Below the pieces are notes generated by a model. It had not been told where the DNA came from. It was given only the letters and a program-made list of their open reading frames with translations, and searched no databases. Shown here piece after piece: positions 4,622-62,776 of a stretch of DNA of 64,000 nt (positions are counted from its first letter, which is position 1; every line of letters begins with the position of its first letter). The position numbers were made by a program, and so were the translations under genes. Source of the stretch: Alloascoidea hylecoeti (taxonomy: Eukaryota). The DNA lies in the NCBI GenBank assembly GCA_001600815.1, contig BCKZ01000007.1, forward strand, positions 1,040,059 to 1,104,058, written 5' to 3'.

Positions 4622-4819
4622 TAATTATAACCAATTAATAATTTAATCTAATTTTGTATACTAAATAAATTTTTAAATAAAAACAACGTGCACGTGGCAA
4701 GATGAAAAATTTTCAAGAAACAAATTCTAAATGAAAATGACTTTAAACGGAACACTCGAAGAAATCCATTCCTCGACCATAACATCTAAAATCATTTCAC
4801 AAAGTGAAAATGAGGTTAA

Positions 4820-5010
4820 ATTCGCGTCAGCTGCCTGTAGTGCAATAGCAGCGACACTGTGCCACGAGCCATAGGCAAGCCCAGGGGACTCAATAGCTAG
4901 TTTCAAAAATAAGAGTAACATAAAAAAGGCATCGATGATGCCATTTCAGTTGTTACACTGAAAAGAACAGATACTACACTTGATCTAAGCCAAAAGGCAA
5001 AGAGATTTGC
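4820..5010 (-). ncRNA. LSR1: U2 spliceosomal snRNA, compact (~190 nt)
   Basis: Minus strand reads ATCTCTTTGCCTTTTGGCTTAGATCAAGTGTAGTATCTGTTCTTTTCAGTGTAACAACTGAAATG, the canonical yeast U2 5' end with GTAGTA. Sm site ATTTTTG at 4904-4910 and stem-loop IV loop TATTGCACTA follow. Ends are approximate. Confidence 0.95.
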
Positions 5011-14334: not shown

Positions 14335-15580
14335 TTTATGTCTTTGATCTGTCTCGGATATTGAACTATCATAAATGTATATCGATTGAAATATCATGAT
14401 TCTTGTTGATATTTGTAGTTTAAATCAAGAGTTATTTTATGGGGTATTGGTTCCACTATTGGTACAGTACACTGTCGTAAAATGTTTAAGCTATAAAATT
14501 CTTAATAATATATTAAAATTAACAGTTATCCTATATAAATATAAATCCCTATTGATAATGGAGGCAATCCCCCTTAGATTTCGATCATGTAGTAATATTA
14601 TAGTGCTAGTTTGATTTTTAATTTCAATTGACAATTTACAAGTTTTCAATTGTAATCTTTCTCTTTGGTGCAACAGATTCAGCTTTCTTTGGAATAACCA
14701 ATTCTAAAACTCCATTATTATATTTTGCTTTAATATTTTCTTCATCAATCTCAATATCTTTTGAAAGTTGAACAGTTCTTTTAAAGCTGCCTGATCTTCT
14801 TTCTTTGATTGTTAAATCCTTTTTCTTTTCCTCCGATGACGATTCGGTCTCACCACTGATAGTTAATTGATTTGAATTGGAATCAAATTCAATATTAACA
14901 TTTTTTGGATCTGCTCCAGGAATAGAAGCATGTACCTCAACGTGCTTATCGTTATTGTAAACATCAATTGCTGGTGTAAATAATCCATTNATATCATTAT
15001 CAAAGTTGAATGAGAACGGGTCCCATTTGTTCAATTGTTTGTTAACGTTGTTATTTGATTTGGAAACTTGTTTTTGATTTTTATTATTGATATCCCTTGT
15101 AACCCCAGCATCTTTTAATTCTCTATTTAATGAATCAACTTGATCTGTGATCGAATCAACAAAGTCCCAAAATGGTGTGTAATAAAATGACATNCTAATT
15201 GTTAATGTGTAGTTGTAACTTGTAAGCTTGTAATAGTAATATATATTGTAACCAGTTTATGTGTATTAATTAATTACTTCTGATGAGAATGATAAAACCG
15301 TGGGAGAGGTTATAACTACCCTTTATATATTTATCTCAAGAATCAATTCTAATATATATAGAATATTCTAGTTGTTTGTTTAATATAGTGAATATATTCT
15401 ATATGGTGTAGGGAAAAGGGTAGTGATATCTAGAATTTTCTATGATGGCATCTGCATATCCAATGCATATGAATATAGGTCCTGCAGAAACGTAAGTAAG
15501 TATGTTTCCACACATAGGAAATTATTAGGAATATAGAGCCTTCTATAATTATGTTCATTAACCTCATTAATATTATAAGG
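14335..15580. repeat. Left arm of an inverted segmental duplication (partner ~26435-27693); near-identical core 14631-15444
   Basis: The reverse complement matches the right arm line by line across the CDS. The promoter differs by one SNP and a 4-nt AT indel; the outer flanks are homologous but clearly diverged. Confidence 0.9.
14636..15193 (-). CDS. Small heat-shock protein (HSP20/alpha-crystallin), copy 1
   Basis: PAIDVY, ASIPG, LTISGE, ERRSGSFKRTVQL and AKYNNGVLELVIPK motifs. The CDS is identical to 26808..27365. Confidence 0.95.
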   Translation of the reverse strand: MSFYYTPFWDFVDSITDQVDSLNRELKDAGVTRDINNKNQKQVSKSNNNVNKQLNKWDPFSFNFDNDXNGLFTPAIDVYNNDKHVEVHASIPGADPKNVNIEFDSNSNQLTISGETESSSEEKKKDLTIKERRSGSFKRTVQLSKDIEIDEENIKAKYNNGVLELVIPKKAESVAPKRKITIENL

Positions 15581-18961: not shown

Positions 18962-20083
18962 ATGATGACATTATCAACTCCAAAAGAACGTTTTCTAGGT
19001 GTTTTCCCTTCCATCGTCGAGGAAGTCGATAAAATCATCTCTAATTATGGTCTAAGCAAAGAAGCCAGGGATTGGTATAAAGCTGTATGTAAACTTCCTT
19101 TCTGAAAATCTCCTATAAATCACTCAATGCTAACAATATTTCTTTTGCATTTTTAGTCTCTCAATTATAATACCCCGGGCGGTAAACTCAATCGTGGGTT
19201 ATCAGTCGTTGACACATACCAGATTTTAACCGCAAAATCAGAGCTTTCTGATGAGGAATATTACAAAGTTGCCATTCTTGGCTGGTGTGTTGAATTACTT
19301 CAGGCATTCTTCTTGGTTTCCGATGACATGATGGATTTCTCGATCACAAGAAGAGGTCAGCCATGTTGGTATAAGCAAGAAAAAGTTGGTATGATTGCCA
19401 TTAATGATTCATTTATGCTTGAATCTGTAATATATATTTTATTGAAGAATCATTTTAGAAAGGATTCTTATTATATTGACTTGGTCGAACTATTTCATGA
19501 AGTCACTTTTCAAACAGAATTAGGTCAATTATTAGATCTTATTACCGCTCCGGAAGATCAGGTCGATTTGAGCAAGTTTTCTCTTGAAAAACATTCTTTC
19601 ATCGTTAGATACAAAACTGCTTACTACAGTTTCTATTTACCTGTAGCCCTTGCTATGTTTATGGCTGGTATTACAAATGAAAACGATTTAAAACAAGCTC
19701 AAAATGTTTTAGTACCTTTAGGTGAATACTTTCAAGTTCAAGATGATTATTTGGATTGTTATGGTTCCCCGGAGGTTATTGGTAAGATAGGTACAGATAT
19801 TCAAGATAATAAATGCAGTTGGTTGGTAAACAAAGCTTTACAAAATGCATCCCCAAAACAACGCAAAATCTTAGATGAAAATTATGGTAAAAAAGATAAG
19901 GATTCTGAAAAATTAATCAAAGAGCTTTATAAAGATTTAAAAATTGAACAAGAATATCATAATTATGAAGAATCTATTGTATCACAAATTAGAAAAGATA
20001 TCGATAATGTTGATGAAAGTAGAGGATTTAAGAAAGATGTATTAACGGTTTTTTTGGAAAAGATCTACAAGCGATCCAAGTAA
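18962..20083 (+). CDS. ERG20: Farnesyl diphosphate synthase, copy 1 (closest to canonical); exons 18962-19084 and 19157-20083
   Basis: Intron GTATGT...GCTAAC...TAG. Motifs [23 protein letters not shown] (FARM), [17 protein letters not shown] (SARM), [14 protein letters not shown], and the end KIYKRSK. Confidence 0.93.
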
Positions 20084-20578: not shown

Positions 20579-23500
20579 TTAATTGTCTAATAATTTAGTT
20601 TCTTTTAGACTTTCAAGTAGACTCTCATCTAAATATTTATTTATCCTTGGCTCATCACTTAATCCTTTCCTTCTTCTTGTTTTCAATACAAAATCTTTCG
20701 CCAAGGAATTAATCGGAGATGGTCTCAATGGAATCAATTTTGCATTTTTATCTAATGGATCTCCAGGCACAATTTGCCATTTATCAAAAATCATTGAAAC
20801 GAAGGCAAGACCTTGAGATGCAACTCTAACATCAGTTTCAAATCCTATCGAATCCATAACAGGAATTAATCCGGTAACAGTTGATAATGGTGTTCCTGCA
20901 ATGGTTGATGTTCCGATTATATGGCCACGTCTTTTTTCTAATAGCATGCCAATTGCTCTTATAGCGCTACCTGGACATGTAGCATGAATAGAATAAACAG
21001 GTTCCATTAATTTAGGTTCTGCTAATAAGAATGAAGAATAACATGCCCTTCTGATAGTTGGGATAATTTGACCCCCAATTTTATATATCGGCTCCGATGC
21101 CAAAGACACATCCATGATTTTGAATTGAGTATTTCTGATAGGTTCTTCACATAATGGACCTTCTCTGACTGCCCACTGAAATCCTTGTTTTATTGAATCT
21201 TTAATACTAAACAGTAGCTTCTTATCAACCTCGGTAGGTAACGTATCGTCAATTAGAGTATTAGGGCCACAACCATCAGGGCCAAAAGCCCAAATTGATC
21301 TAGCAGCCATTAAATCCCAATCATAATTCTTTTGGAAATGTGTTGCTAATGTTCTACTTGGCCATTTAGGATCGATCGCTCCCTTTTCAATGTCATCTGC
21401 AATTTGTGTATCTAGAGGTTCAGCAATGATTGTTATTTTATTCTTTTTATTTGTTGTCTCTGCATAACATTTCATCATTGATGTTTCAATACATGTTTCA
21501 CTAAATTTAGTAACAGGATCCGATACTTTTATCTCAATCTCAGCATATATTTTTCTTAAATCATGTAGTAAACAATCCATGTATAATTCTCCTGATCCTA
21601 CGATAATATGCTCTCCAGATTCTTCAACCTTTGTTTCTGATACAGGATAGGATTTATTGATTTTTCTTAAGCCATCTAACAATTTCGGTAATTCTGATGG
21701 ATTAAATGGTTCGACTGAAACTTTGAGTATAGATTTTGAAATATATCTTATTGGATTAAATATATATAAAGGAGTACCATGATCGGCTACATCATAAATA
21801 GTTGAACTTTGAACAATTGACTCATCAATTCCCGAGATTAAGGCAATATTACCTGCAGGAATACCATCAATTGGTAATTTATACCTCGTTTCCGAAATCC
21901 ATAAATCTTTAATTGTTGTACTGACCATATCTTCCTCATCTTCTATTGTATACCCTTCACCAAGCACTTTTATATCTTGGCCACTTCTTAAAGTACCACT
22001 GAAAACACGTGCTAATGCAAAAAATTGAGTACTATCAGATGCGTTTATTAATTTTGTAACATGAGCAACTACTGGCCCATTTTCATCCGATTTTAATATA
22101 GATTTAATAATTTCACTATCTTCATCAATTGGTCCTCTGTAAATTGTTTGTAATTTAGTTTTGGCTATTTGGATTGGTGAAGGTAAATGTTTAACAATCA
22201 TATCACCAAAAGGAGAAGAATTTCCAAAAAATGATAAACAAACTTCCCTTAAAAGCGGTAACATATCAAGTTTATAAGTTGAGGGTTTAAGGACCACTCC
22301 TAAACCTTTTAATATTGATTTTAGTTGTTTAGCATCCTGACTTATCGTAACTGAATAAATTTTATATAATGGTTCCAATATAAAATAAATGAATGACAAT
22401 TTACTATCCTCCTCTTTGGCTTTATTGGAAAATTTCCTAACTGATGGATTATAATATACATCCCCCCATAATCGTTTGGCAAATTCTTCTCTGTTGATAA
22501 GTAAATGTTGTTTATCAATATATAACTTTGCAAAACTGTTTAAAGAAAATATCCATTGCATTGATGTAGAAGCAAATGAAACATTACCCAATTCAGGTGA
22601 AAACGTAATAGATTCCGAACTGAATCCTGATTCTTTTACAAATTGATTAACTTCAGCTAGTGAATGTCGTATTTTATAATATGCATCATTGATAGGCAAT
22701 TTTAACTCTAATATCAATCTATCAATTTTGTTGATGATTAAAACCATTGGTAGTTTCTCTAATAATGTGTGTTCAATAATCCGTTTTGTATTTATACCTA
22801 ACCCTTCAATAACATCAATCACTACTACAACACCATCTGCTAGCCTTATAGAAGCAGCCACTTCGTCTGCAAAATCAACATGCCCCGGTGTGTCAAGTAT
22901 ATTGAAAACGTGTGATTTACCATTTAAATCGGGAAGTAGAAGGGTAACAGGTGCTGTTTTAATCGATATTCCTCGTTGTGTTTCTAAAATATGATTATCC
23001 GTGTACCGTAATTGGTGATCTAATTTTTTACCATGATATTGTTCTACAGTTGGATGGGTTTCTAATATTAACATATCAATTAAAGATGTTTTACCAGAAT
23101 GCAATTGTCCAACAATTGAAATATTTCGAACGTGTTCTGGGAAATGCATTAAGTCTGTCAAATATTTTCTTTCAAATGTAACTTGTGGTAAGTTTGTTTC
23201 TTCAATTGAAAAACTTTTAACCTCAACAGGCGCAATTATTGGAACTGATATATCCTGTTCATCGACATCTTGAACTAATGTTTCAACATCAGGACCAAAT
23301 ACTTCTTCTGCTGAAGGATAATACTGTTTATCTTCATGTAATACCACAGCCGATGAAGGACCATCAAATCTAGCAACTGCCATTTCGGTATCATTATCAA
23401 CAAAATTATCATTTTCATCTTTATCACCTCTTCCTTTATCTTTTTCATCGTCTGGATCGGCTTCTGAATCTGATAACATATAATTTGAAACATTTGGTTT

Positions 23501-23599
23501 CCTTGTTGAATTTTCACTTGACACACTTTCAGCATCTGAATCATTTAAATCGCCAATGAAATTACCAAAATCATCATATAAATTGTCATCTTCATCCAT
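20579..23599 (-). CDS. SNU114: U5 snRNP GTPase Snu114 (EF-2-like)
   Basis: N-terminus MDEDDNLYDDFGNFIG, VVLHEDKQYYPSAEEVFG, GQLHSGKT, DTPGHVDF, and C-terminal KTRRRKGLS. ATG at 23599. Confidence 0.96.
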   Translation of the reverse strand: MDEDDNLYDDFGNFIGDLNDSDAESVSSENSTRKPNVSNYMLSDSEADPDDEKDKGRGDKDENDNFVDNDTEMAVARFDGPSSAVVLHEDKQYYPSAEEVFGPDVETLVQDVDEQDISVPIIAPVEVKSFSIEETNLPQVTFERKYLTDLMHFPEHVRNISIVGQLHSGKTSLIDMLILETHPTVEQYHGKKLDHQLRYTDNHILETQRGISIKTAPVTLLLPDLNGKSHVFNILDTPGHVDFADEVAASIRLADGVVVVIDVIEGLGINTKRIIEHTLLEKLPMVLIINKIDRLILELKLPINDAYYKIRHSLAEVNQFVKESGFSSESITFSPELGNVSFASTSMQWIFSLNSFAKLYIDKQHLLINREEFAKRLWGDVYYNPSVRKFSNKAKEEDSKLSFIYFILEPLYKIYSVTISQDAKQLKSILKGLGVVLKPSTYKLDMLPLLREVCLSFFGNSSPFGDMIVKHLPSPIQIAKTKLQTIYRGPIDEDSEIIKSILKSDENGPVVAHVTKLINASDSTQFFALARVFSGTLRSGQDIKVLGEGYTIEDEEDMVSTTIKDLWISETRYKLPIDGIPAGNIALISGIDESIVQSSTIYDVADHGTPLYIFNPIRYISKSILKVSVEPFNPSELPKLLDGLRKINKSYPVSETKVEESGEHIIVGSGELYMDCLLHDLRKIYAEIEIKVSDPVTKFSETCIETSMMKCYAETTNKKNKITIIAEPLDTQIADDIEKGAIDPKWPSRTLATHFQKNYDWDLMAARSIWAFGPDGCGPNTLIDDTLPTEVDKKLLFSIKDSIKQGFQWAVREGPLCEEPIRNTQFKIMDVSLASEPIYKIGGQIIPTIRRACYSSFLLAEPKLMEPVYSIHATCPGSAIRAIGMLLEKRRGHIIGTSTIAGTPLSTVTGLIPVMDSIGFETDVRVASQGLAFVSMIFDKWQIVPGDPLDKNAKLIPLRPSPINSLAKDFVLKTRRRKGLSDEPRINKYLDESLLESLKETKLLDN

Positions 23600-24495
23600 T
23601 ATTTCAAGAGTTCTCAATAGGATGTCAAAACAGAAAGATCAGTTGCACTATTCGATGAAATTATGGAAAATTTAAGGTATGAAGTTCATGCCCGGGTAAC
23701 ATCACAATATAAATATGTGACACGTGATTGTATCTCGATATTAATCGTATCACATTAGTTGGAGTATCGTGGTAACTAACACGACAATCACAATCCTTCT
23801 ATAATACACTTCACGCTTTAAACTAGATAATAAAACTTCCTCATGATTCAAGATGAGTTGAAAGAGAAGATAATTATAACTTGATCCTGTATGGCCAAAT
23901 CAGGGACAGTACTAGTTAGCTATGAACTTTATAGTAAATATTTCTACCATTCCTGAAATGATATTAATTGATCATGAGTATAGATCTTAAATTTAAATTT
24001 GCATGTACTATGTAGTATATTGATTCCCAGTTGCAATATAATGTATAAACAGTTTGCTAAACACGTACTAAAGATAAACGCCTTAAATCTTGACTATAGA
24101 TCTCAATTAAACATTGTGTAACAAATTTATCTATAATCATCCAAGGATATACTTGTTCCAACCTTCTGAAGAGACTTAAAATTGAAAAACTCTGTTGATC
24201 TGTTGCCTGATCTGGCTGGATATGCCGCGGATTAATATGATCTCAAATGCTAAAGTACTAAAAGTAGGCATTCCAGGTAAAACCACATCTAATTCATTGA
24301 ACCATGATCATTATAATTAAATAACATCTCTTCAAATTCTTCAAATTTATCTTCGGATTCGGACTTGCATTTGTCTATAAATACTGCTAAATCCTCGAAG
24401 ATCGCCACTTTCCTACCTGAACAATTAATATTGATTTCAATTGAAAAATTTCCTCAATTAACTTTCATTTACACCTAACATAATATTTAAATAAT

Positions 24496-25606
24496 ATGCC
24501 ATCTAAAGTTGATTCTAAACAAAAGTTCCTTGATGCTTTCCCTCAAATTTTGGATGAAATTGAAGAATTGTGTCATCAATATGGATTAAATCAAGAAGCA
24601 ATTGATTGGTTTAAAGAGGTAAGTGATTCAAATCATATATTGATTTTAATTTGAACTAATATTGATTTCCAACAATTAGAACCTTAGCTACAATACACTA
24701 GATGGTAAACTTAATCGTGGTCTTTCTGTTATTGATACATATCAAATTCTCACTTCAAGAACCAAGTTATCAAGCGATGAATATAATAAATTAGCTCTTC
24801 TTGGTTGGTGTGTTGAACTTTTCCAAGCCTTTTTCCTTGTTGCTGATGATATTATGGATGGTTCAATCACACGTCGCGGTAAACCATGTTGGTATAAAAG
24901 GGAAAAAATTGGGCTTTTAGCAATTAATGATGCATCAATGTTAGAAGCTGTTATATTTGTTTTATTGAAAAAACATTTTAAAAAAGAAAATTATTATATT
25001 GATTTAATTGAATTATTTCATGAAATGATTTTAAGAACTGAATTAGGTCAATTATTAGATTTAATAACAGCTCCAGAGGATGTTATTGACTTATCTAAAT
25101 TTTCTTTACAGAAGCATTCTTTTATTGTTAGATATAAAACGGCTTATTATAGTTTCTATTTACCTGTTGCATTAGCAATGTATATTACTGGAACTGCGAC
25201 AGAATCAAATTTAAAACAAGCGTTAGATGTTTTGATTCCATTAGGTGAATACTTTCAAATTCAAGATGACTATTTAGATTGCTATGGTGATCCTTCAGTA
25301 ATTGGAAAAATCGGAACTGACATTCAAGATAATAAATGTTCATGGTTAGTTAATACGGCTTTGACTATTGCTACTCCTGAACAACGTGCTATACTTGATT
25401 CTAATTATGGTAAAAAAGATAAAAAATCAGAACAAATAATTAAAGATTTATTTAAGGAATTAAATCTTCATCAAAACTATCTAGATTATGAAGAATCGAT
25501 TGTTAAAGATATTAAGAAACAAATTGATGAAATTGATGAAAGTAATGGATTTAAGAAAGATGTAATTACAACATTCTTAAACAAAATTTATAAAAGATCA
25601 AAATAA
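24496..25606 (+). CDS. Farnesyl diphosphate synthase paralog, copy 2 (diverged); exons 24496-24618 and 24680-25606
   Basis: Same intron position as copy 1 (GTAAGT...ACTAAT...TAG). FARM DDIMD and SARM DDYLD are intact; substitutions include YNTLDGK, NDASML and [11 protein letters not shown]. Confidence 0.92.
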
Positions 25607-26472: not shown

Positions 26473-26683
26473 GAAGGTTCTATATTGCGATGTTAGAAAC
26501 ATATTTCCCCTTTCCAAGTCCCTAGATTCATACGGGTGCACATCATAGGCGACAATAATGCATAGAAAATTCTAGATATCACTACCCTTTTCCCTACACC
26601 ATATAGAATATATTCACTATATTAAACAAACAACTAGAATATTCTATATATATTAGAATTGATTCTTGAGATAAATATATAAA
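26473..26683 (+). promoter_or_regulatory. Heat-shock elements and TATA box of HSP20 copy 2 (largely mirrored in copy 1)
   Basis: GAAnnTTC units at 26473-26480, 26565-26572 and 26637-26644; TATATAAA at 26676-26683. Confidence 0.7.
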
Positions 26684-26807
26684 GGGTAGTTATAACCTCT
26701 CCCACGGTTTTATCATTCTCATCAGAAGTAATTAATTAGTACACATAAACTGGTTACAATATTACTATTACAAGCTTACAAGTTACAACTACACATTAAC
26801 AATTAGN

Positions 26808-27365
26808 ATGTCATTTTATTACACACCATTTTGGGACTTTGTTGATTCGATCACAGATCAAGTTGATTCATTAAATAGAGAATTAAAAGATGCTGGGGTT
26901 ACAAGGGATATCAATAATAAAAATCAAAAACAAGTTTCCAAATCAAATAACAACGTTAACAAACAATTGAACAAATGGGACCCGTTCTCATTCAACTTTG
27001 ATAATGATATNAATGGATTATTTACACCAGCAATTGATGTTTACAATAACGATAAGCACGTTGAGGTACATGCTTCTATTCCTGGAGCAGATCCAAAAAA
27101 TGTTAATATTGAATTTGATTCCAATTCAAATCAATTAACTATCAGTGGTGAGACCGAATCGTCATCGGAGGAAAAGAAAAAGGATTTAACAATCAAAGAA
27201 AGAAGATCAGGCAGCTTTAAAAGAACTGTTCAACTTTCAAAAGATATTGAGATTGATGAAGAAAATATTAAAGCAAAATATAATAATGGAGTTTTAGAAT
27301 TGGTTATTCCAAAGAAAGCTGAATCTGTTGCACCAAAGAGAAAGATTACAATTGAAAACTTGTAA
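26808..27365 (+). CDS. Small heat-shock protein (HSP20/alpha-crystallin), copy 2
   Basis: Identical CDS to 14636..15193, in inverted orientation. Confidence 0.95.
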   Translation: MSFYYTPFWDFVDSITDQVDSLNRELKDAGVTRDINNKNQKQVSKSNNNVNKQLNKWDPFSFNFDNDXNGLFTPAIDVYNNDKHVEVHASIPGADPKNVNIEFDSNSNQLTISGETESSSEEKKKDLTIKERRSGSFKRTVQLSKDIEIDEENIKAKYNNGVLELVIPKKAESVAPKRKITIENL

Positions 27366-27795
27366 ATTGTGACACACATTTTCAATATCTCATTTTCAAT
27401 TGAAATTGAATACCAAACTAGTTTTGGAGGATACTATAGTACTACTAAATATGATTGAAATTTAAAGGAGATTGCTTATCAATAGGGATTTATAGATAGG
27501 ATAACTTTTAATATAATATTAAGAATTCTATGACTTAAACATTTTATGACAAGATAATCATTAGTGTTACAATAGTAGAACTAGTATCCCAAAAATTAAC
27601 TCTTGATTTAAACTACAAATATTAACCCATTATTCTTTTTGTTGATATATATTTATGATAGTTGAATATCTGAGACAGATCAAAAACGTGAAATTTCCCC
27701 ACCTATGCCTATAAGTTATGCATAAAAGGAAATATTAATGAAAATGAGAATATATTAGATCTTTATATGGTAACATTGATTTAAAAGATTTGTAA

Positions 27796-34733: not shown

Positions 34734-35854
34734 ATGCTGAAAACAAGTCTTAGAATTTCTGCGAGGTATCCTCGGACTCGATTATCAAACTTCTCTTATG
34801 GATTGGCAAATGTTTCGATTAGTCGATTTGCCTCGACTGTTGGGAAGACACTTTTACATGAAGATCTAAATATTAAACAATCAACTGGAATTCTTGGTAA
34901 AGATACAACTTTAGAGCATAATATTAAGTCCGAAACAAATAGATTGGAAAAAACTTTAAAGAAATTCTGGGAGAAAGTGAATGTGGCTAAACATGCTGGT
35001 ATGTATTGAAAAGTTCTAAAAAGCTACAATAGTATATGATTAAAACGAATCTAACGAATGATATAAATGTAGATGGATTCACAGTTCAATTGGATACGAA
35101 ACCTATTAGGACTCCATTAGGTAATAATCTGATTATTCCAAAATCAAAAGAAGTTTTAGCCCATTTAATTGCACACGAATGGAAAATATTACCAAATTTG
35201 AAGATAAAACCGCATTCTGTCCCTCTAACTTCTATTGCTTCAAGGGCAATTGATTTGAGTTTAGCAGAGAAAAAGAAATTAGCAGGTGAAGAATTAAATG
35301 CAGATGATGCGATGAAACTAGCATCAAAAAACGATATTGTTGATGGTTTATTAAATTATTTGGATACTGATACTTTATTAGTATTTTCACCACTTGCAGA
35401 TCATGAAGGGAAATTAAGAAAAGCACAAGAGGATACTTATGAACCAATCATAAAATATTTTGAAGAATATTTTTCAAATTTATCTGGTAAACAGATCAAA
35501 TTAAAGTCATTAGATTCCGAACTTGGACTTATGGGTAATCAACAAACTCCAGAAACTAGAGAAATAGTTAAAAATTGGTTACATCAATTAGACATTTGGG
35601 ATTTATGTGCATTAGAAAAAACAACATTGGTTGCAAAGAGCTTTATTGCTGGGTTTTTAATTATCAATAAACATTTACCTCCGCAACCAAATGCTTATTC
35701 AAATATAACTGTCGATGAAATTTGTAACGCTGTTAATTTGGAAACAATTTTTCAAACTCAAGAATGGGGTGAAGTTGAAGATACTCATGATGTTGATCAT
35801 GCAGATTTAAGAAGAAATTTAGGTGCTTCTCTTATTGCTTCTCATAGTGTATAA
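34734..35854 (+). CDS. ATP12: Mitochondrial F1-ATPase assembly factor Atp12; exons 34734-34998 and 35073-35854
   Basis: Presequence-like N-terminus and KKFWEKV, intron GTATGT...CTAAC...TAG, then VQLDTKPIRTPLG, YLDTDTLL and QEWGEVEDTHDVD. Confidence 0.92.
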
Positions 35855-48137: not shown

Positions 48138-50176
48138 TTAAAAATATCGATGGTTATGGCGAAAGAAGGTTTAAAAAGAGAATATTTATTGGTGTGGAGA
48201 AACATCCGATAATTGAATGGGGTAAGCATCTTCATATCATGTGAAGTAATGCATGCATCATATTATGACTTCTATAGAATATTCGAACATATAATTATAA
48301 CGAATAACTGACAACTCTTCTACTATATATTTTAATAATGTATTTCTCACATAGACACACTCTCCATAAAAATATTAAACCTTGATCAATGAAAATATGA
48401 CATTAAAATTATAAAGCCGCCATTCATCAGGAGGGATTCAAATATTCAAACAGTATTATTTAATGAAGTCTTCGCTTTATTCTTTAAATACCAGTACAAT
48501 GTTTGTCTAACAGTGCAGAATGTAATCATAAATTATCGAGCTTTCACCTAAAATTGAATACAATCTATACCAAAATCTACTATAAGCCGATATCTGGTGG
48601 GAATTGTTTTTGTACTTTTCATTCAAATTTTATAAATATTGTTAAAGTTCAAAGTGCCTGTTCTCCCAATTGCGCCAAAAAGCCAATCGACCCTTTAGTG
48701 AACTGTTCTAAGAGTGTAATATATATCCAACAAATATGTATAAATATTACGTTTTGGAATTCTCTATTTTAATTGTAAGTAGCTATGTTGCTTTATAATT
48801 TAGTTAGGCTCCACAGGAGTCATACTAGCTATCTAATTCATTGAATTAAAAAGCAACGAATACCATCAAGCCTTAGTTGAGCAATATACATCTACTGATA
48901 ATAACACCGCTAGCGCTACGATATATGACACCAGAAAATCTTAAAAAACGAAAATCTTATATCGTATTAGTTGAAATATATTTATAGAAAGATATAAAGT
49001 TGTATATGTTTTTAACAATCAACTACAAATTGTTTATAATAATAATGTGAGCTATAGGCCTACAAGTTAGTCACAATTACTTCCAAATATAGGACTTGAA
49101 AAGGGATTCTTAATTGCAATCGATATCCTCTAGATATTAATATTGTTAAAAATAAGGGAGATAGTAAGATCGTGTCATGATCACATGGGATTGCTTGTGA
49201 TCAGTGTTTAAACTAGTAAATGAAATCATACTCTTCCAACGCAAAGGATTCATATTCGTATGTATAACTTTGCCAGTTGCAAATGGAGAAACTTCAAGTA
49301 TACCTCAATATAAGAAATACCATATATATATGTATACTCATAACTTTTAATATTCAGATTAAATCATAGTGTAACTGAAGTTTTCCTTGAGATTCCTTCA
49401 CTAGAAGGTCTGTTACCAATTGAATAATATTACTTTTAATCTTTCAGCGCTTTTTTATTTTATATAAATATTGTTAATAATTCTCTCATAGTCGCCACCG
49501 TGTATTATATAGGTATAGAGCTTTATGATCGCATTATATAGATGGATGCCTCAGTTTAGCCGTTTTTGAATTGCAATTGGATGGTAGCATTGCGATCGCT
49601 GTAAAAATTTAAACTTATATATTCCCATGGCCGATTCAATATTTTAACGCTTCATACCAACTATTTATATTGACGGTTTAAACCCTGAAATTTTCTTTCT
49701 CTACACAATGTAGTATATGCTGTATATTATCTCATATGTATTCCCCTTGTTGTTCCTACTATTATTACCATTATTATATAATAATGTCAAATCAATTAAG
49801 AATAGTAGCTATATAGTATAGGCCTTTATGTATAAAATCATGATAAGCTTATAACAAGCTTAAAATGATTTGCCATCTTCTAGCTGTGATGATATTAAAA
49901 TCGATATCGAACGTGTGTAAACGGGATAACCCAAAGTTACAATACAGGCCAAATTAAATAAATCAATATTGAATGAGACTAAATTAGATTTAGATCAGCT
50001 TAAACGTCAACTGTATTTTGTGATTGTTGCAACCAGTTGCAACATTATTAATTGCAATTTTAATTTTATCTAAAAATTATTAAATATTTCTTTTGTGAAT
50101 ATAACATTACACAAAACCATAATTGTAAACATCTATAAAAGCACACAACAATTAATATCAACTGTGAAAAAATTTA

Positions 50177-50623
50177 ATGTCTTCTATCAGAATAGGTTTT
50201 AAAAAGAACACAGATATTATGGGAGAAAAAACAATTAAAGCGCTCACGAAGTCCATCAATTTTGTTCTCGATAAAATAACAACCCACGTTTCCGATACAA
50301 ACTCCCACAAAACATATATCGGTAGGAAATTCTCAAGAACAAAATATGAAGCAAAGGATATGATTATTCATCTTCAAGAGTGTTCTAAATGTCATGATCG
50401 TGCCTCACAAGTTGCCGATTATAGTGTTCTAGTTGTTAATGTATTTGCTTGTTATACTTGGGTTATTATTGTTGATGGAACTATTGAATTATGGGATAAA
50501 TTTTATCGAAAATTACCGACTTGGGAAGTTCGACCATATTTGACATATTTGATGATTGCGGTGGTGGTATCGATTCTTTTTAACTATGTGTTTGCTTTCA
50601 TCATTTTAATTCTTATTGGATGA
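50177..50623 (+). CDS. Hypothetical 148-aa protein with a C-terminal hydrophobic segment
   Basis: Longest ORF in a very AT-rich tract, with TATAAAA ~40 nt upstream. No family recognised. Confidence 0.4.
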   Translation: MSSIRIGFKKNTDIMGEKTIKALTKSINFVLDKITTHVSDTNSHKTYIGRKFSRTKYEAKDMIIHLQECSKCHDRASQVADYSVLVVNVFACYTWVIIVDGTIELWDKFYRKLPTWEVRPYLTYLMIAVVVSILFNYVFAFIILILIG

Positions 50624-51161
50624 AATCAATTTATTAAAGTAAAGATGTGAATGGAGTTGATATAAAATGTGGAACATACAAAGATTATAAACTGTGATGA
50701 AGGGACTATACTATGGGATCTCTACTTGAGATTGAGATAACATAACTTTGTAAGGGTATCAAAGCAATAGTATGAGAATCAGATAAACTTTCAATGAAAA
50801 TTTAGCAAAAAGGTGAGAAAATAATATACCCAAACTAGTATAGTAATTAAGGAATAATTTTTTAGCGATTGCACAATCATCATGACTATATTACATTAAC
50901 CTGATAACATGCTTATTTATCCATTGATCAGTTGTAATTAAAAACTTAAGGATATCTGGAGTTGTAAAAGTACTTCCAATAATGATATATCTATTGATAA
51001 ATATAAAGTTTTATACGGAAGCAAGAGTAGTAACTATACCGATATACACATTTTTCTTTGACATATAATTTCCAATTAAAACTTATAACTAGAAACTATT
51101 CAAACATATTTTGATGCTTTAATCCTTCACCTCACAGAGAAAACATATTTTTACCATCACT

Positions 51162-51199
51162 TCATCATGTTTTAGTCAAATCATCATGTTTTAGTCAAA
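51162..51199. repeat. Perfect 19-bp tandem duplication (TCATCATGTTTTAGTCAAA)x2
   Basis: Direct reading. Confidence 0.9.
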
Positions 51200-51406
51200 T
51201 CCATACACAATATTGATACTTACTAGATCAGATGAAATCTCTTGAGAGGTTCGGTAGGAGATATCAATGCTTTTTTTTAACTATACAGGTCAGTTAGGAG
51301 AAAATCCTATTCACGAACGAAGTCTTACATTAGCAAGACACTCAGCCCCTTCTATAATTTTTTTAACGTTTCATATATCATGTATATTTAGAAACTATGT
51401 AAATTA

Positions 51407-51663
51407 TGAGGAAATCTCTACTATATATAGTGAAATAAAAAACCTCTTTATCCATTCTTCTTATTATTTTTGTATGTTCCTGGCATACATCATTCCTCTC
51501 TTCTTATGTTTCTTTACCTGGACCACCTTATTAAATGTTACAAATCTCTTTGTAAAGCGTGTCATCCTCATGCAGGGGCCATGCTAATCTTCTCTGTCTA
51601 GATATATCCATGGCGCGAAGATATATAAAAGATGATTTCTCATATCAAATAGAAAATACCTCA
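51407..51663 (+). mobile_element. Possible older, degenerate solo LTR containing the U6 fragment
   Basis: TGAGG...CCTCA termini, a pyrimidine-rich 5' part loosely resembling the adjacent LTR, and TATATAAAA near 51622. No matching TSD. Confidence 0.3.
51533..51597 (-). ncRNA. U6 snRNA 3' portion only (ACAGAGA box to 3' end); probable pseudogene fragment or isolated exon
   Basis: Minus strand: ACAGAGAAGATTAGCATGGCCCCTGCATGAGGATGACACGCTTTACAAAGAGATTTGTAACATTT. No U6 5' stem-loop or telestem strand upstream, and only T3 downstream. Confidence 0.85.
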
Positions 51664-51668
51664 CACAG

Positions 51669-51972
51669 TGTGAAGATCCATTCTCGACTCTTTTTCTTTA
51701 TCTATCTATTTCCTCTTATTTTCTGTTTATCTGGTTACACTCGTTCCTCTCGTGTTCTCGTAGTTATACTTATTGTTATTATTACGTTTCATGTGATACA
51801 CTCCAGCATGGCCACAATCACACCTATTATCGTATGATATATATATAAACCAGACATAGCTAGAACTATATAAACTCTCGTTTCCATCTAGTTATCTAGT
51901 CTAATTAACTTGTACTTGGCCTTTGTCAAGGTCCTAGTAAGACTCTACAAGCCAATCATAGAATCTCTTACA
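51669..51972 (+). mobile_element. Solo LTR (~304 bp), Ty3/gypsy-like by position, 13 nt upstream of tRNA-Arg
   Basis: TGTGAAGAT...ATCTCTTACA termini (TG...CA, imperfect inverted repeat), 5-bp flanks CACAG/TACAG (4/5 TSD), an internal TATATAAA, and tRNA-proximal placement. Confidence 0.7.
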
Positions 51973-51985
51973 TACAGAAAGAGTT

Positions 51986-52079
51986 GCCCGCGTAGCCTAA
52001 TGGTTAGGGCGTCAGACTTCTATTAAAGTTTCTTTAGATTGCAATCTGAAGATTGTGGGTTCGACTCCCACCGTGGGTG
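51986..52079 (+). tRNA. tRNA-Arg(UCU) with a 21-nt intron (52023-52043)
   Basis: Acceptor GCCCGCG/CGTGGGT, A box TAGCCTAATGG, anticodon stem TCAGA/TCTGA with TCT at 52019-52021, GGTTCGACTCC, and a T5 terminator. Confidence 0.93.
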
Positions 52080-52673
52080 CTTCCTTTTTAATCTGCCCAT
52101 TTGTATAGTCACGTGATAAAACAGTTTAAAATTTTTTTGGTTCCAGGGTGCTCGACCAAACCAAAAGTTAGGGGTCGACCACGCTCGAAGGTCGGATGGT
52201 AGTACCTGGTACTTGGTATACGCACCATACGAAGACGAAACAAATGGACCATGATTGACTGTGTTATGGCTATTATTGGCTAGCGCTCGAGTGTGGTGCA
52301 TAACAATAAATAACGGAAGCGAATATTAAATAACTTAATCTTATACGTATACTAGTAAGCCTAATTACATTTTATATTGATTGATATCGATATTGATATA
52401 TTAATATCCACAGATTTCCCAAACCGACAATGTCAAAAAAACAACAACCTAATTAAACCATAGTGGACTATAAAGAAGATCTAGAGCAGCATAATAAAGC
52501 CAAATAAATCTTTCTAAAACATATAATCCCAATTAGTTGAAAATATCTAAGAATGAGCGAAAATTTAAGGAAGAGTAGTCGATTTCAAATACAATTGCAT
52601 GATACTTTAAATGAAACAGATATATTAATACTAACACTAATAAACTAAAATTACTGTAACTAGATTTCTTTTA

Positions 52674-52902
52674 CTATAAAGGCAATAAATGTTAGTTAAA
52701 CTTTCAAAGATAGTTGTTTATGTTTAGACAACACTTTTTAAAAAGATGAATTTCAATTTATCAGACAATTCTACTATCGGTTTTCCATAAAGGATCAACA
52801 CGGTTATTCAGTTGTCCCTATCTAAATAATATCATCATTATGAAATTCATCTTCTAAACTGCGTTTGAACAATAATTCATCAAACTTACCATTACATATC
52901 AT
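52674..52902 (-). other. Non-coding snoRNA host transcript with intron 52674-52889
   Basis: GTAAGT (52884-52889), ACTAAC (52691-52696) and TAG. Spliced exons encode only MICNVKEI*. Tbf1-like, Reb1 and TATA sites lie upstream at 52955-52999. Confidence 0.75.
52757..52842 (-). ncRNA. SNR64: Box C/D snoRNA, snR64/SNORD74-type (guide for the 25S Cm2337-equivalent)
   Basis: C box ATGATGA (52832-52838), guide TAGATAGGGACA before D' CTGA complementary to LSU rRNA UGUCCCUAUCUA, D box CTGA (52761-52764), and an 11-bp flanking stem GATGAATTTCA/TGAAATTCATC. Confidence 0.85.
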
Positions 52903-53248
52903 TTTTTGGAAGAGAAGAAAATAAATTCCAAAAATAAAATAAAATTTAGAGCTTTTTATACCGTACAAGTCCGGGTAAATCATATACCTTGTTAGGGCTT
53001 CAATTACTATAATGGATGGTATGAGTCTCGAGTTGGTCATCCTACGAGGGTTGGAGATCTTTTAAATACCTATTAATAATAGTTCATTCACCATACAATT
53101 AAGCTTAGTTGATTACCATAATTCGTAGTTACATGTAGATACTAGATACTATAACTTTTTTTTTAAATTTATATGGCCGGTCACATGTTCCATAACCCGA
53201 CCAACTGTGTCGAAATCTTTCACTCTCCATACAAACCAAAACAGAAAA

Positions 53249-53640
53249 ATGCTAAGACAGGCTTTTAATAGCATTCCGAAACTCGCTTCTTCTTCTTTTT
53301 TACCAACCTATACATTGATACCTTTGGTAGGGCTTGGTAATGCTGCATTTGGGTCCTCTACCTTTGTCAGAACTATGATGAAGACGCACAGGGGGTGCTA
53401 TAAGAGATGGATGAAGACAGGATCAGGTTATAAAAGAGTAAGTTATTGATTTAAAGCTGAATAATGCAAATGAAAAAATTATTTAGCTGACAATGAATAT
53501 AGGGTAGAAGTGGCCGAAAGCACGGTAATACTGGATGGGGTGGTACCCTTCTTGGACAACATACTGGTACTATTGGAGCTAAAGGTAAAGGACATGGAGA
53601 TCAAACCAAGAAACTCAAACGATTATTGCCATATATATAG
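53249..53640 (+). CDS. Mitochondrial ribosomal protein bL35m; exons 53249-53437 and 53503-53640
   Basis: Presequence and MKTHRGCYKRWMKTGSGYKR, intron (GTAAGT...GCTGAC...TAG), then GRSGRKHGNTGW...KLKRLLPYI, the L35 pattern. Confidence 0.88.
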
Positions 53641-53967
53641 TCAATTTTTATGATTCTGCATTGTAAATAGATCAATCAAGTATTACTCCACACGTTACTG
53701 TATAATATAATTACAAGGTATCTAGGAAAAGTTTGTTTGACTTGAAAGGTCTGATAATATATAAATAAGTGTATATTACACCGTCTATAAATAATTGATT
53801 GAGATTACCCATTCCTATGTTGGTCTCATCATTTTAATTATAAATTATAAATTATAAATTTATACCGGTAATTCAAATGTCGATATCATTTTTTTGTAAC
53901 TCAGATTACCCGGATTAATAAGAAAATGTTTATTAATTGCAATCGTCAGTTATCATAATATTAAGCC

Positions 53968-54579
53968 ATGCCATTAGAATTAATACTAGATACTCTCAGT
54001 TATATTGATGATGATATCTCAGTTTCAGATCGTGAGAATTCCGAAGCACAGATCACTGAGGAACTAAAAAAAATTCATCAAACTGCACTTTCATCAAAAG
54101 TTGAGAAACTTTTACCTTCAATACCATTAACAAATTCACTTTTAAATCTAGAGATTGGTAAACTTGAGAAACTACCAAAGAAAAATTTAAAGACCATTTT
54201 TAATGATTACACGATGGGTGGGGTTGACATGTCACGATACTCAAATCTATATGAAGATTCTAATAATGAAAACCTTGATCACTTAAGAGCTTATGTTGCT
54301 TTAGCTTATACAAGTAATCGACTACGATCGAACAATTTACTTGGAGAGTATGGGAAAAATCATTGGTTAAGGACCGTTGATGACACATCTAATATATTGG
54401 GTTTACTAGAGAGAAATGTTGAAAAAAAACGAAAAGATGTGGAGGAGATAAATTCAAACAGAAAGAAACAACAATTGGATGCCCAACCACGTTTGTCTTA
54501 CCTAGAAGAACAATGGGAAAAGGGAGTGAAAAGTTGTCTAGAGGTTGGAATAGCGGTCGAAGAACTCAACAATTCTTAA
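53968..54579 (+). CDS. Prp19-complex splicing factor SPF27/BCAS2 (Snt309 family)
   Basis: LDTLSYID, GGVDMSRY, LLGEYGKNHW and INSNRKKQQ...LSYLEEQW motifs. Confidence 0.82.
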   Translation: MPLELILDTLSYIDDDISVSDRENSEAQITEELKKIHQTALSSKVEKLLPSIPLTNSLLNLEIGKLEKLPKKNLKTIFNDYTMGGVDMSRYSNLYEDSNNENLDHLRAYVALAYTSNRLRSNNLLGEYGKNHWLRTVDDTSNILGLLERNVEKKRKDVEEINSNRKKQQLDAQPRLSYLEEQWEKGVKSCLEVGIAVEELNNS

Positions 54580-54833
54580 ACGAAATTTTATAGCTGTATC
54601 GATATAAATAAATTGTATATGATGGGCGCTTTGCTTTGGCAATCTGTATATTATAAGAGTACAACTATTGATAAATAATAATAAACCACGCATTTACCAA
54701 TACAAATAGTAAGTAGCTATATTCTATAGAAATAGCACTATACATTACATGAACCATCTATTACTGGGAAATATAAAAACTCTGAATTAATACATCATGT
54801 TTAAAGATTAAATGAGATACTAGTTAAAAAGCT

Positions 54834-55689
54834 TTATTTGTTTAAGACATCAGCATCATATTTTTGCTTGAACCATGAGACGGAATCTTCTTTTGTAACT
54901 TTATGAGCAAGACCAATCTTTGATTGAGCCCTCTTTCTGCGGGCAATACGAGCACCTGGTCTACCCATGACGACATAAAAGTCCATACCGTAAATTCCAA
55001 TAGAAGGATCATATTTGATACCTAAATCAATGTGTTCGGAAATACCGAAACCAAAGTTACCAGTTTCAGAAAAGTTTCTGTTACGGAGTTGATATTCCTT
55101 AACCTTTAAACCTCTTTCTAAAATTTCTTCAGCTTTTGGCCCACGGACAGTAACATGAACAGCGATCTTTTCATTTCTTCTAATACCAAAAGTTCTAACT
55201 GTGTATCTGGCTTTAGAGTAAACTGGGGTTTGACCAGATAATTGTTCCAATACTTTGGCAGCACGGGTTAATCTATCACCGGATTCACCAACACAAATGT
55301 TTAAGGTGAGCTTCTCGATACGAAGATCTCGCATTGGGTTTGTAGTTTTGCCGCTCTATATAGTATGTTAGACAAAAATGATTTGAAAAGAAATGTTCAT
55401 TTTTTACTGATTCTTGTGGATGAAACTATCGTAATAGTATCATTAGATGTAAAGTACTAAAATGATTAGAATGATCTTTTAATCTATTCATCTTAATCTT
55501 CATGTTGCAATTAGAATATTTCTTTTTCATCGTATCGTATTTGTTGAAATTTATTGTTTCCTAAAACTTCATTTTATAAACCACTCTTAAAAACCTCTTT
55601 ATGAATCCACCAAAACAATATACTAAGTAAGAAGCTACTTCATCCACAGAACTTCAATATATTTGAGAGAATAAAGAGTGACATACCAT
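54834..55689 (-). CDS. RPL11: 60S ribosomal protein L11 (uL5); exon 1 is the ATG (55687-55689), intron 55356-55686, exon 2 54834-55355
   Basis: ATG|GTATGT...CTAAC...[35 protein letters not shown]. Confidence 0.96.
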
Positions 55690-62704: not shown

Positions 62705-62776
62705 AGGTCGTGCCCGGGATCGAACCGGGATCGCCAGAATCAAAATCTGATGTGCTAGCCATTACACTACACAACC
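62705..62776 (-). tRNA. tRNA-Gln(UUG)
   Basis: GGTTGTGTAGTGTAATGG...TCAGA TT TTG AT TCTGG...GGTTCGATCCCGGGCACGACCT, followed by a T-run terminator. Confidence 0.95.

Follow-up and report, generated by a model that had tools for sequence, protein, structure and literature searches.

A U6-derived fragment and its surroundings

The locus lies in a 64-kb window, by which we mean the whole stretch of DNA that was analysed, and consists of a partial U6 snRNA sequence on the minus strand, a candidate solo LTR and a tRNA gene on the plus strand. A U2 snRNA gene lies in the same window. The features, in window coordinates, are these:

51533-51597, minus strand: U6-derived fragment, recognised by Rfam, by alignment with a Saccharomyces-type U6 gene and by predicted duplexes with U2
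51598-51600, minus strand: TAG directly upstream of the ACAGAGA box, a 3′ splice-site look-alike
51602-51626, minus strand: weak A/U-rich hairpin (ATATATC-N11-GATATAT), onto which cmscan forced the U6 5′ stem-loop
51621-51627, minus strand: TATATAT, the first T of which precedes the fragment's first base by 30 nt
51437-51442, minus strand: T6, the first run of four or more T, 91 nt downstream of the fragment
51407-51663, no strand assigned: 257-bp segment bounded by TGAGG...CCTCA, with borders at chance level
51669-51972, plus strand: candidate solo LTR of 304 bp, TGTGAAGA...CTCTTACA, orientation guessed from TATA-like motifs
51986-52079, plus strand: tRNA gene with a 23-nt intron (Rfam tRNA, 60.5 bits; ARAGORN)
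4816-5006, minus strand: U2 snRNA gene of the same organism (Rfam U2, 151.6 bits)

The Rfam U6 model (RF00026) matches positions 51531-51624 on the minus strand with 63.3 bits (E 1.3e-13; gathering score 44), and this is the sole U6 match in the window, both at gathering scores and with E values up to 5. The true U6 homology within it comprises 65 nt (51597-51533, minus strand), from the first A of ACAGAGA to CAUUU. In the cmscan alignment these 65 nt are nearly identical to the Rfam consensus; 5′ of the box the alignment is poor, with a 9-nt deletion, sparse matches and four of five stem pairs non-standard. A 19-nt motif of the U6 tail, scanned against metagenomes, yielded 73 loci, only two of which (L033 and L045) contain U6 genes, both of the Saccharomyces type and neither from the species studied here. 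The local alignment between the fragment and L033 extends from the box to GAGATTT with 47 of 56 positions identical. As judged by these similarities, the U6-derived sequence on the minus strand is confirmed as genuine. It includes the ACAGAGA box, the AGC triad, the internal stem-loop (ISL), the strand that pairs with the 5′ end of U2 and a UUU tail, and its ISL loop reads GCAUG, whereas the loop ends in A in the Rfam consensus and in L033. The initial annotation had read the same 65 nt (ACAGAGA, AGC, ISL and 3′ tail) on the minus strand, with TAG directly before the box, a T3 end and the loop GCAUG, had placed them beside a tRNA and had named the Rfam U6 model as a check; in all these respects it agrees with the present data.

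The U2 gene at 4816-5006 served as the partner for duplex prediction. The fragment is predicted to form a 9-bp helix II with nucleotides 1-9 of this U2 and a helix I-like duplex of 4+3 bp, and by these predictions it is matched to the organism's own U2. Because the fragment is nearly undamaged and its predicted pairing with U2 comprises both helix II and a helix I-like duplex, the copy may be young or recently derived from a real U6.

The U2 gene itself is short and canonical (191 nt), and the same 64 kb contain a Snu114/EFTUD2-like gene (20579-23638, minus strand) and a BCAS2/Snt309-like gene (53965-54579, plus strand). The presence of these three splicing components in one window is probably a coincidental cluster.

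The anticodon of the tRNA at 51986-52079, read by eye, is UCU (Arg); ARAGORN gave no name. Just beyond its terminator lies a G+C-richer stretch (52128-52335) that is predicted to fold better than shuffled sequences on the plus strand (z -2.5, 3 of 200 shuffles) and to a lesser degree on the minus strand (z -1.5). It has no Rfam match and no convincing open reading frame, and may represent an unannotated small RNA. Further along, a C/D-box snoRNA-like match (RF00530, 52772-52844, minus strand; 30 bits, short of the gathering score, 48) sits in an apparent 216-nt intron (52674-52889, minus strand) with the signals GTAAGT (52889-52884), TAACTAAC (52698-52691) and TATAG ending at 52674. The transcript around this intron has little coding potential and is directed towards the tRNA. 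Elsewhere in the window, two copies of an 814-nt inverted repeat (14631-15444 and 26561-27370, 11.1 kb apart) are 100% identical, an identity that points to inverted duplication in the recent past or to gene conversion that still goes on. Each arm carries an open reading frame of the HSP20 family (14636-15256, minus strand; 26736-27365, plus strand), and two polyprenyl-synthetase paralogues (19157-20083 and 24680-25606) lie between the arms.

The two borders of the fragment

At its 3′ end the fragment stops at T3, and no Pol III terminator is present there; the first run of at least four T follows only after 91 nt. The tRNA genes of the window are terminated immediately, by T5 (52085-52089) in the case of the 51986-52079 gene and by T6 in that of a tRNA-Gln at 62705. 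In L033, six bases follow GAGAUUU before the U run begins. The fragment likewise has six bases after GAGAUUU, followed by UUU and then by unrelated sequence, and by this alignment its 3′ border lies three bases into the would-be U-tail. A hypothetical 161-nt read-through RNA (51597-51437) is predicted to fold no better than shuffles (z +0.31). Two further candidates on this side were rejected: a degenerate second U6 copy just 3′ of the fragment, which 105 of 300 shuffles align equally well, and a second intron near the 3′ end (GUAACA ... AG|GUUUUUU), for which the 5′ splice site is weak and the branch site absent.

On the 5′ side, cmscan and a search for the linker motif show that the first 46 nt of U6 are absent at the locus and in the whole 64-kb window. 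Even with permissive thresholds, cmscan found no second piece of U6 in 51598-52400, in 49000-55000 or in the whole window. We also aligned five flanks (51532-51430, 51700-51598, 51850-51701, 51985-51851 and 52330-52130) to full-length U6, and no score exceeded those of dinucleotide shuffles: depending on the flank, 94 to 264 out of 300 did equally well. A candidate 5′ half at 52130-52330 was dismissed on these grounds, 123 of 300 shuffles aligning equally well. The conserved linker (...AACNAU) that precedes the box in U6 is absent, its place being taken by a deletion and mismatches in the cmscan alignment, and no local alignment covers it. Across the whole window the linker motif has scattered matches only. 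The closest-looking of them, TTGGAACAAT at 55250-55241 on the minus strand, was rejected as it lies inside the coding frame of a ribosomal protein of the L5 family (Pfam Ribosomal_L5).

The U6 homology thus has two sharp borders, with flanks unrelated to U6. The U6 sequence at the locus begins with the ACAGAGA box and extends to the third U of the tail, and the features that a U6 gene needs around it are absent.

Origin of the fragment

At somewhat better than even confidence, we interpret the sequence as an orphan, non-functional U6 fragment, most likely a 5′-truncated cDNA copy of mature U6 RNA. The initial annotation had offered three origins, and among these a one-off capture of U6 cDNA is the best fit to the sharp borders, the 3′ border in the U-tail and the missing promoter-proximal half and terminator. 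A 3′ border inside the U-tail is expected of an RNA copy and not of a gene piece, which would include the T-run and the flank beyond it. According to the proposed mechanism, a retroelement reverse transcriptase would have copied mature U6 RNA into a 5′-truncated DNA, and this copy would have become fixed in one of two ways, within a chimeric cDNA produced by template switching or as filler DNA during the repair of a break. The insertion would have taken place upstream of a tRNA gene, in DNA that is prone to retroelements. In yeast, cDNA can be captured where breaks are repaired, and retroviruses are reported to package U6. From where the 3′ border lies in the sequence we infer an RNA origin, and we likewise infer the reverse-transcriptase route and an intact U6 gene elsewhere in the genome. 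As to the last, of 230 Saccharomycotina genomes surveyed with covariance models, 229 were predicted to have a U6 gene (PMC10581693), so that an intact U6 is to be expected elsewhere if the organism belongs to the Saccharomycotina; our own placement puts it in the Ascomycota, and its intron signals are of the yeast type. The survey might also accept strong partial matches like this fragment, which passes the Rfam threshold.

Hallmarks of a particular route of insertion are not recognisable at the fragment borders. For a target-site duplication, the best downstream match of the 23-nt upstream flank scores 9.0 against a null mean of 10.4. There is no poly(A) at the fragment border, A7 and A8 runs being 169 and 255 nt downstream, and no retroelement tail was recognised there. 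A LINE-type target duplication beside the A8 run (51278-51271) was discarded, being neither the best match nor above the null. Searches of the literature found no snRNA retro-fragments in yeasts, and an 18-nt U6-tail string had no occurrence in a full-text search.

Next to the cDNA copy, the reading that survives best, although we consider it unlikely, is that the fragment belongs to a repeated LTR or TRIM family, U6 having been captured into an LTR and then copied with the element. Such a family was one of the three proposed origins, and LTRs with 5S or tRNA sequence are known (PMC10886601). The segment 51407-51663 has TG...CA ends with a 5-nt inverted repeat and adjoins a candidate solo LTR near the tRNA. 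Its TGAGG...CCTCA termini, noted initially as the bounds of an LTR-like segment, are indeed present but occur at chance level: in the A+T-rich DNA of 50650-51985 there are 52 TG...CA pairs with perfect 5-nt terminal inverted repeats, 13 of which enclose the U6 piece, compared with means of 40.4 and 13.2, respectively, in 300 Markov shuffles, every one of which has at least one enclosing pair. The segment is flanked by AATTA and CACAG, and since these differ at four of five positions, there is no target-site duplication. Neither a primer-binding site nor a polypurine tract can be read beside it. The small-RNA pieces of Cassandra, Helenus and Ajax include Pol III promoter elements, and the U6 part has none. 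We therefore disfavour this origin on the strength of the chance-level termini and the missing target-site duplication.

The neighbouring candidate, 51669-51972, has TGT...ACA ends, is flanked by CACAG (51664-51668) and TACAG (51973-51977), stands between the fragment and the tRNA and stops 13 nt before the tRNA start. It is plausibly a better LTR candidate than 51407-51663. The solo LTR that had been claimed to adjoin the segment can be retained as a candidate, but relaxed criteria yield 17 such candidates in 1.3 kb, and this one has no second copy in the window. Elements targeting the start sites of Pol III genes typically occupy such a tRNA-proximal position, and Ty3-type elements land there. 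Nothing in 50650-51985 recurs in the rest of the window, the flanks having at best A+T-rich matches of 20-27 nt, and the absence of a second copy within the 64 kb also speaks against a family. No retroelement protein domain was found by Pfam in 31 of the window's 40 stop-to-stop frames of at least 110 aa, which were the frames scanned, and reading the six-frame open reading frames of 50640-52700 by eye revealed nothing recognisably retroelement-like. Two flank strings gave no matches in viral_contigs, and the U6-tail string none in genome_contigs.

It is improbable that the fragment is a DNA-level remnant of a former U6 gene from which the first 46 nt and the 3′ flank have gone while the old promoter stayed. 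The observation that speaks for such a remnant is TATATAT, which starts exactly 30 nt before the fragment, the spacing between TATA and +1 in the L033 gene; in addition, Pol III genes are frequently clustered. TATATAT is, however, one of eight TATAWA motifs in 1,336 nt, a TATAWA lies 27-33 nt upstream of 3.3% of positions (the chance level for the -30 spacing), and the match was spotted after many features had been inspected. A remnant would also require a precise deletion of +1 to +46 and a second break in the T-run, with the 65 nt between them nearly unchanged. Of A- and B-box promoter motifs near the fragment there are just two loose matches, each about 800 nt away.

Quite improbable, too, is the third of the proposed origins, according to which the fragment is the 3′ exon of an intron-split U6, or a true U6 allele interrupted by an insertion, the 5′ part having been displaced. 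Its attraction is the YAG at the exon-like border (TAG, 51600-51598), directly before the box, where fungal U6 introns are described as clustering, at and upstream of the ACAGA box (PMC5855946); the fragment is, moreover, intact and predicted to pair with U2. The remaining splice signals argue against an intron. The 388 nt upstream (51985-51598) contain no CTRAY branch site, and the lone YTRAC in this interval (TTGAC at 51929) is 329 nt from the TAG. For comparison, CTAAC is present in 9 of 18 intron candidates of the window, which were selected by pattern and are not validated introns, and the distance from CTAAC to YAG is 8-20 nt in the three best-supported probable introns. Of these three, 34999-35072 (plus strand) and 56631-56560 (minus strand) each link two long open frames, and 55686-55356 (minus strand) lies just 5′ of the frame with the Pfam Ribosomal_L5 domain. 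Strings resembling 5′ splice sites occur upstream of the fragment (GTGAG 51664, GTATGT 51975 and GTAAG 51971) with nothing U6-like before them, and the latter two are 11-15 nt from the antisense tRNA. A U6 5′ exon, which would comprise the stem-loop and the linker and run up to a 5′ splice site, is present nowhere in the 64-kb window. The candidate LTR hides no such exon either, as its excision together with one flank copy brings the tRNA to about 84 nt from the box. The absence of a branch point and of a 5′ exon had already been put forward as weakening a split U6; both absences hold, and with the terminator missing after the fragment as well, the split gene is contradicted locally and disfavoured.

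We give still less credence, and regard as very doubtful, the notion that the fragment is the catalytic half of the organism's only U6, with the 5′ domain encoded elsewhere and trans-spliced or base-paired to it, or that a 5′-truncated U6-like RNA is made from the TATA at -30.

It is scarcely credible that the fragment belongs to a functional U6, contiguous but very short, in which 51626-51602 would serve as the 5′ stem-loop. In support of such a gene, cmscan aligned the full model (positions 1-105) at 63.3 bits, and a hairpin of 7-8 bp exists. But the hairpin, with a minimum free energy of -4.9 kcal/mol, is equalled or bettered in 43 of 500 shuffles (8.6%) and by 7.9% of 1,175 neighbouring 32-nt windows, in line with the earlier remark that no U6 5′ stem-loop precedes the fragment. 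Linker and terminator are absent, the read-through RNA shows no excess folding, and a real Saccharomyces-type U6 (L033) reaches 79.2 bits with the Rfam model despite a core further from the consensus than that of the fragment. A mis-join within a true U6 gene during assembly is just as hard to credit: it requires mis-joins at both borders, and four runs from three studies, one maybe the source, hold fractions of 0.71-0.86 of the words sampled from 51300-52300.

The truncated cDNA copy, which we prefer, leaves two coincidences unexplained if the capture was random, namely the 5′ border exactly at ACAGAGA after a YAG and the TATATAT exactly 30 nt upstream (3.3% by chance). It is these coincidences that leave a small probability to the gene remnant, to the split gene and to a transcribed half-U6.

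Should the retro-copy reading hold, the locus would be an snRNA retro-fragment in a yeast-like fungus, a small curiosity, and a further sign that reverse transcriptases in a retroelement-rich genome copy cellular RNAs; snRNA retro-copies are already well described in vertebrates. It would gain much greater importance only if there were no intact U6 elsewhere in the genome. Since the fragment passes the Rfam U6 cut-off as a seemingly full-length match, automatic annotation would label it the U6 gene.

Comparison with known systems

With the canonical Saccharomyces-type U6 genes (L033 and L045) the fragment shares the box, the AGC triad, the ISL and the U2-pairing strand, and as in L033 there is a TATA 30 nt before the first base, which is the first transcribed base in that gene and the first matching base here. 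What the fragment lacks in comparison with the L033 gene are 46 further 5′ nucleotides, the T10 terminator and the B-block-like GTTCGAACC, which in that gene stands some 120 nt downstream.

Intron-containing fungal U6 genes, such as that of S. pombe, resemble the fragment in that a YAG abuts U6 sequence at the ACAGA box (PMC5855946). According to that source, which summarises Canzler 2016, the signals of fungal U6 introns are canonical at both splice sites and at the branch site (PMC5855946). Such genes possess a branch site, a 5′ exon and a terminator, all three of which are missing at the fragment.

Cassandra, Helenus and Ajax are described as TRIMs with LTR sequence derived from 5S or tRNA (Kojima 2024, PMC10886601), and the likeness first proposed was that of a small-RNA-derived sequence in an LTR-like unit. 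The captured part in these elements is a Pol III promoter, and the elements are multi-copy with target-site duplications (PMC10886601). By contrast, the fragment has no promoter element, and the LTR-like borders around it do not exceed chance expectation and lack a target-site duplication. The term "snRNA" has no occurrence in the main text of that paper (PMC10886601).

Among the U6 retropseudogenes of vertebrates are chimeras, made through template switching by LINE enzymes, in which a 5′-truncated U6 is joined to a short stretch of LINE (Doucet et al. 2015, PMC4476161), and in platypus almost all U6-L2 chimeras are reported to consist of a 5′-truncated U6 upstream of a short LINE piece (PMC4476161). 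What these retropseudogenes have in common with the fragment is the 3′ end of U6 RNA, without promoter or terminator, joined to foreign sequence (PMC4476161). Unlike the vertebrate U6/LINE chimeras, the fragment has no recognised LINE tail, poly(A) or target-site duplication, and its host is a yeast-like ascomycete.

Template switching by LTR elements is reported to produce retrocopies flanked by pieces of the element (Tan et al. 2016, PMC5131818). Whereas the copied RNA here would be a piece of a Pol III snRNA and not an mRNA, and the LTR flanks are only putative, the putative copy of a cellular RNA amid retroelement-like DNA resembles LTR-mediated retroposition, in which neither poly(A) nor LINE hallmarks are expected (PMC5131818).
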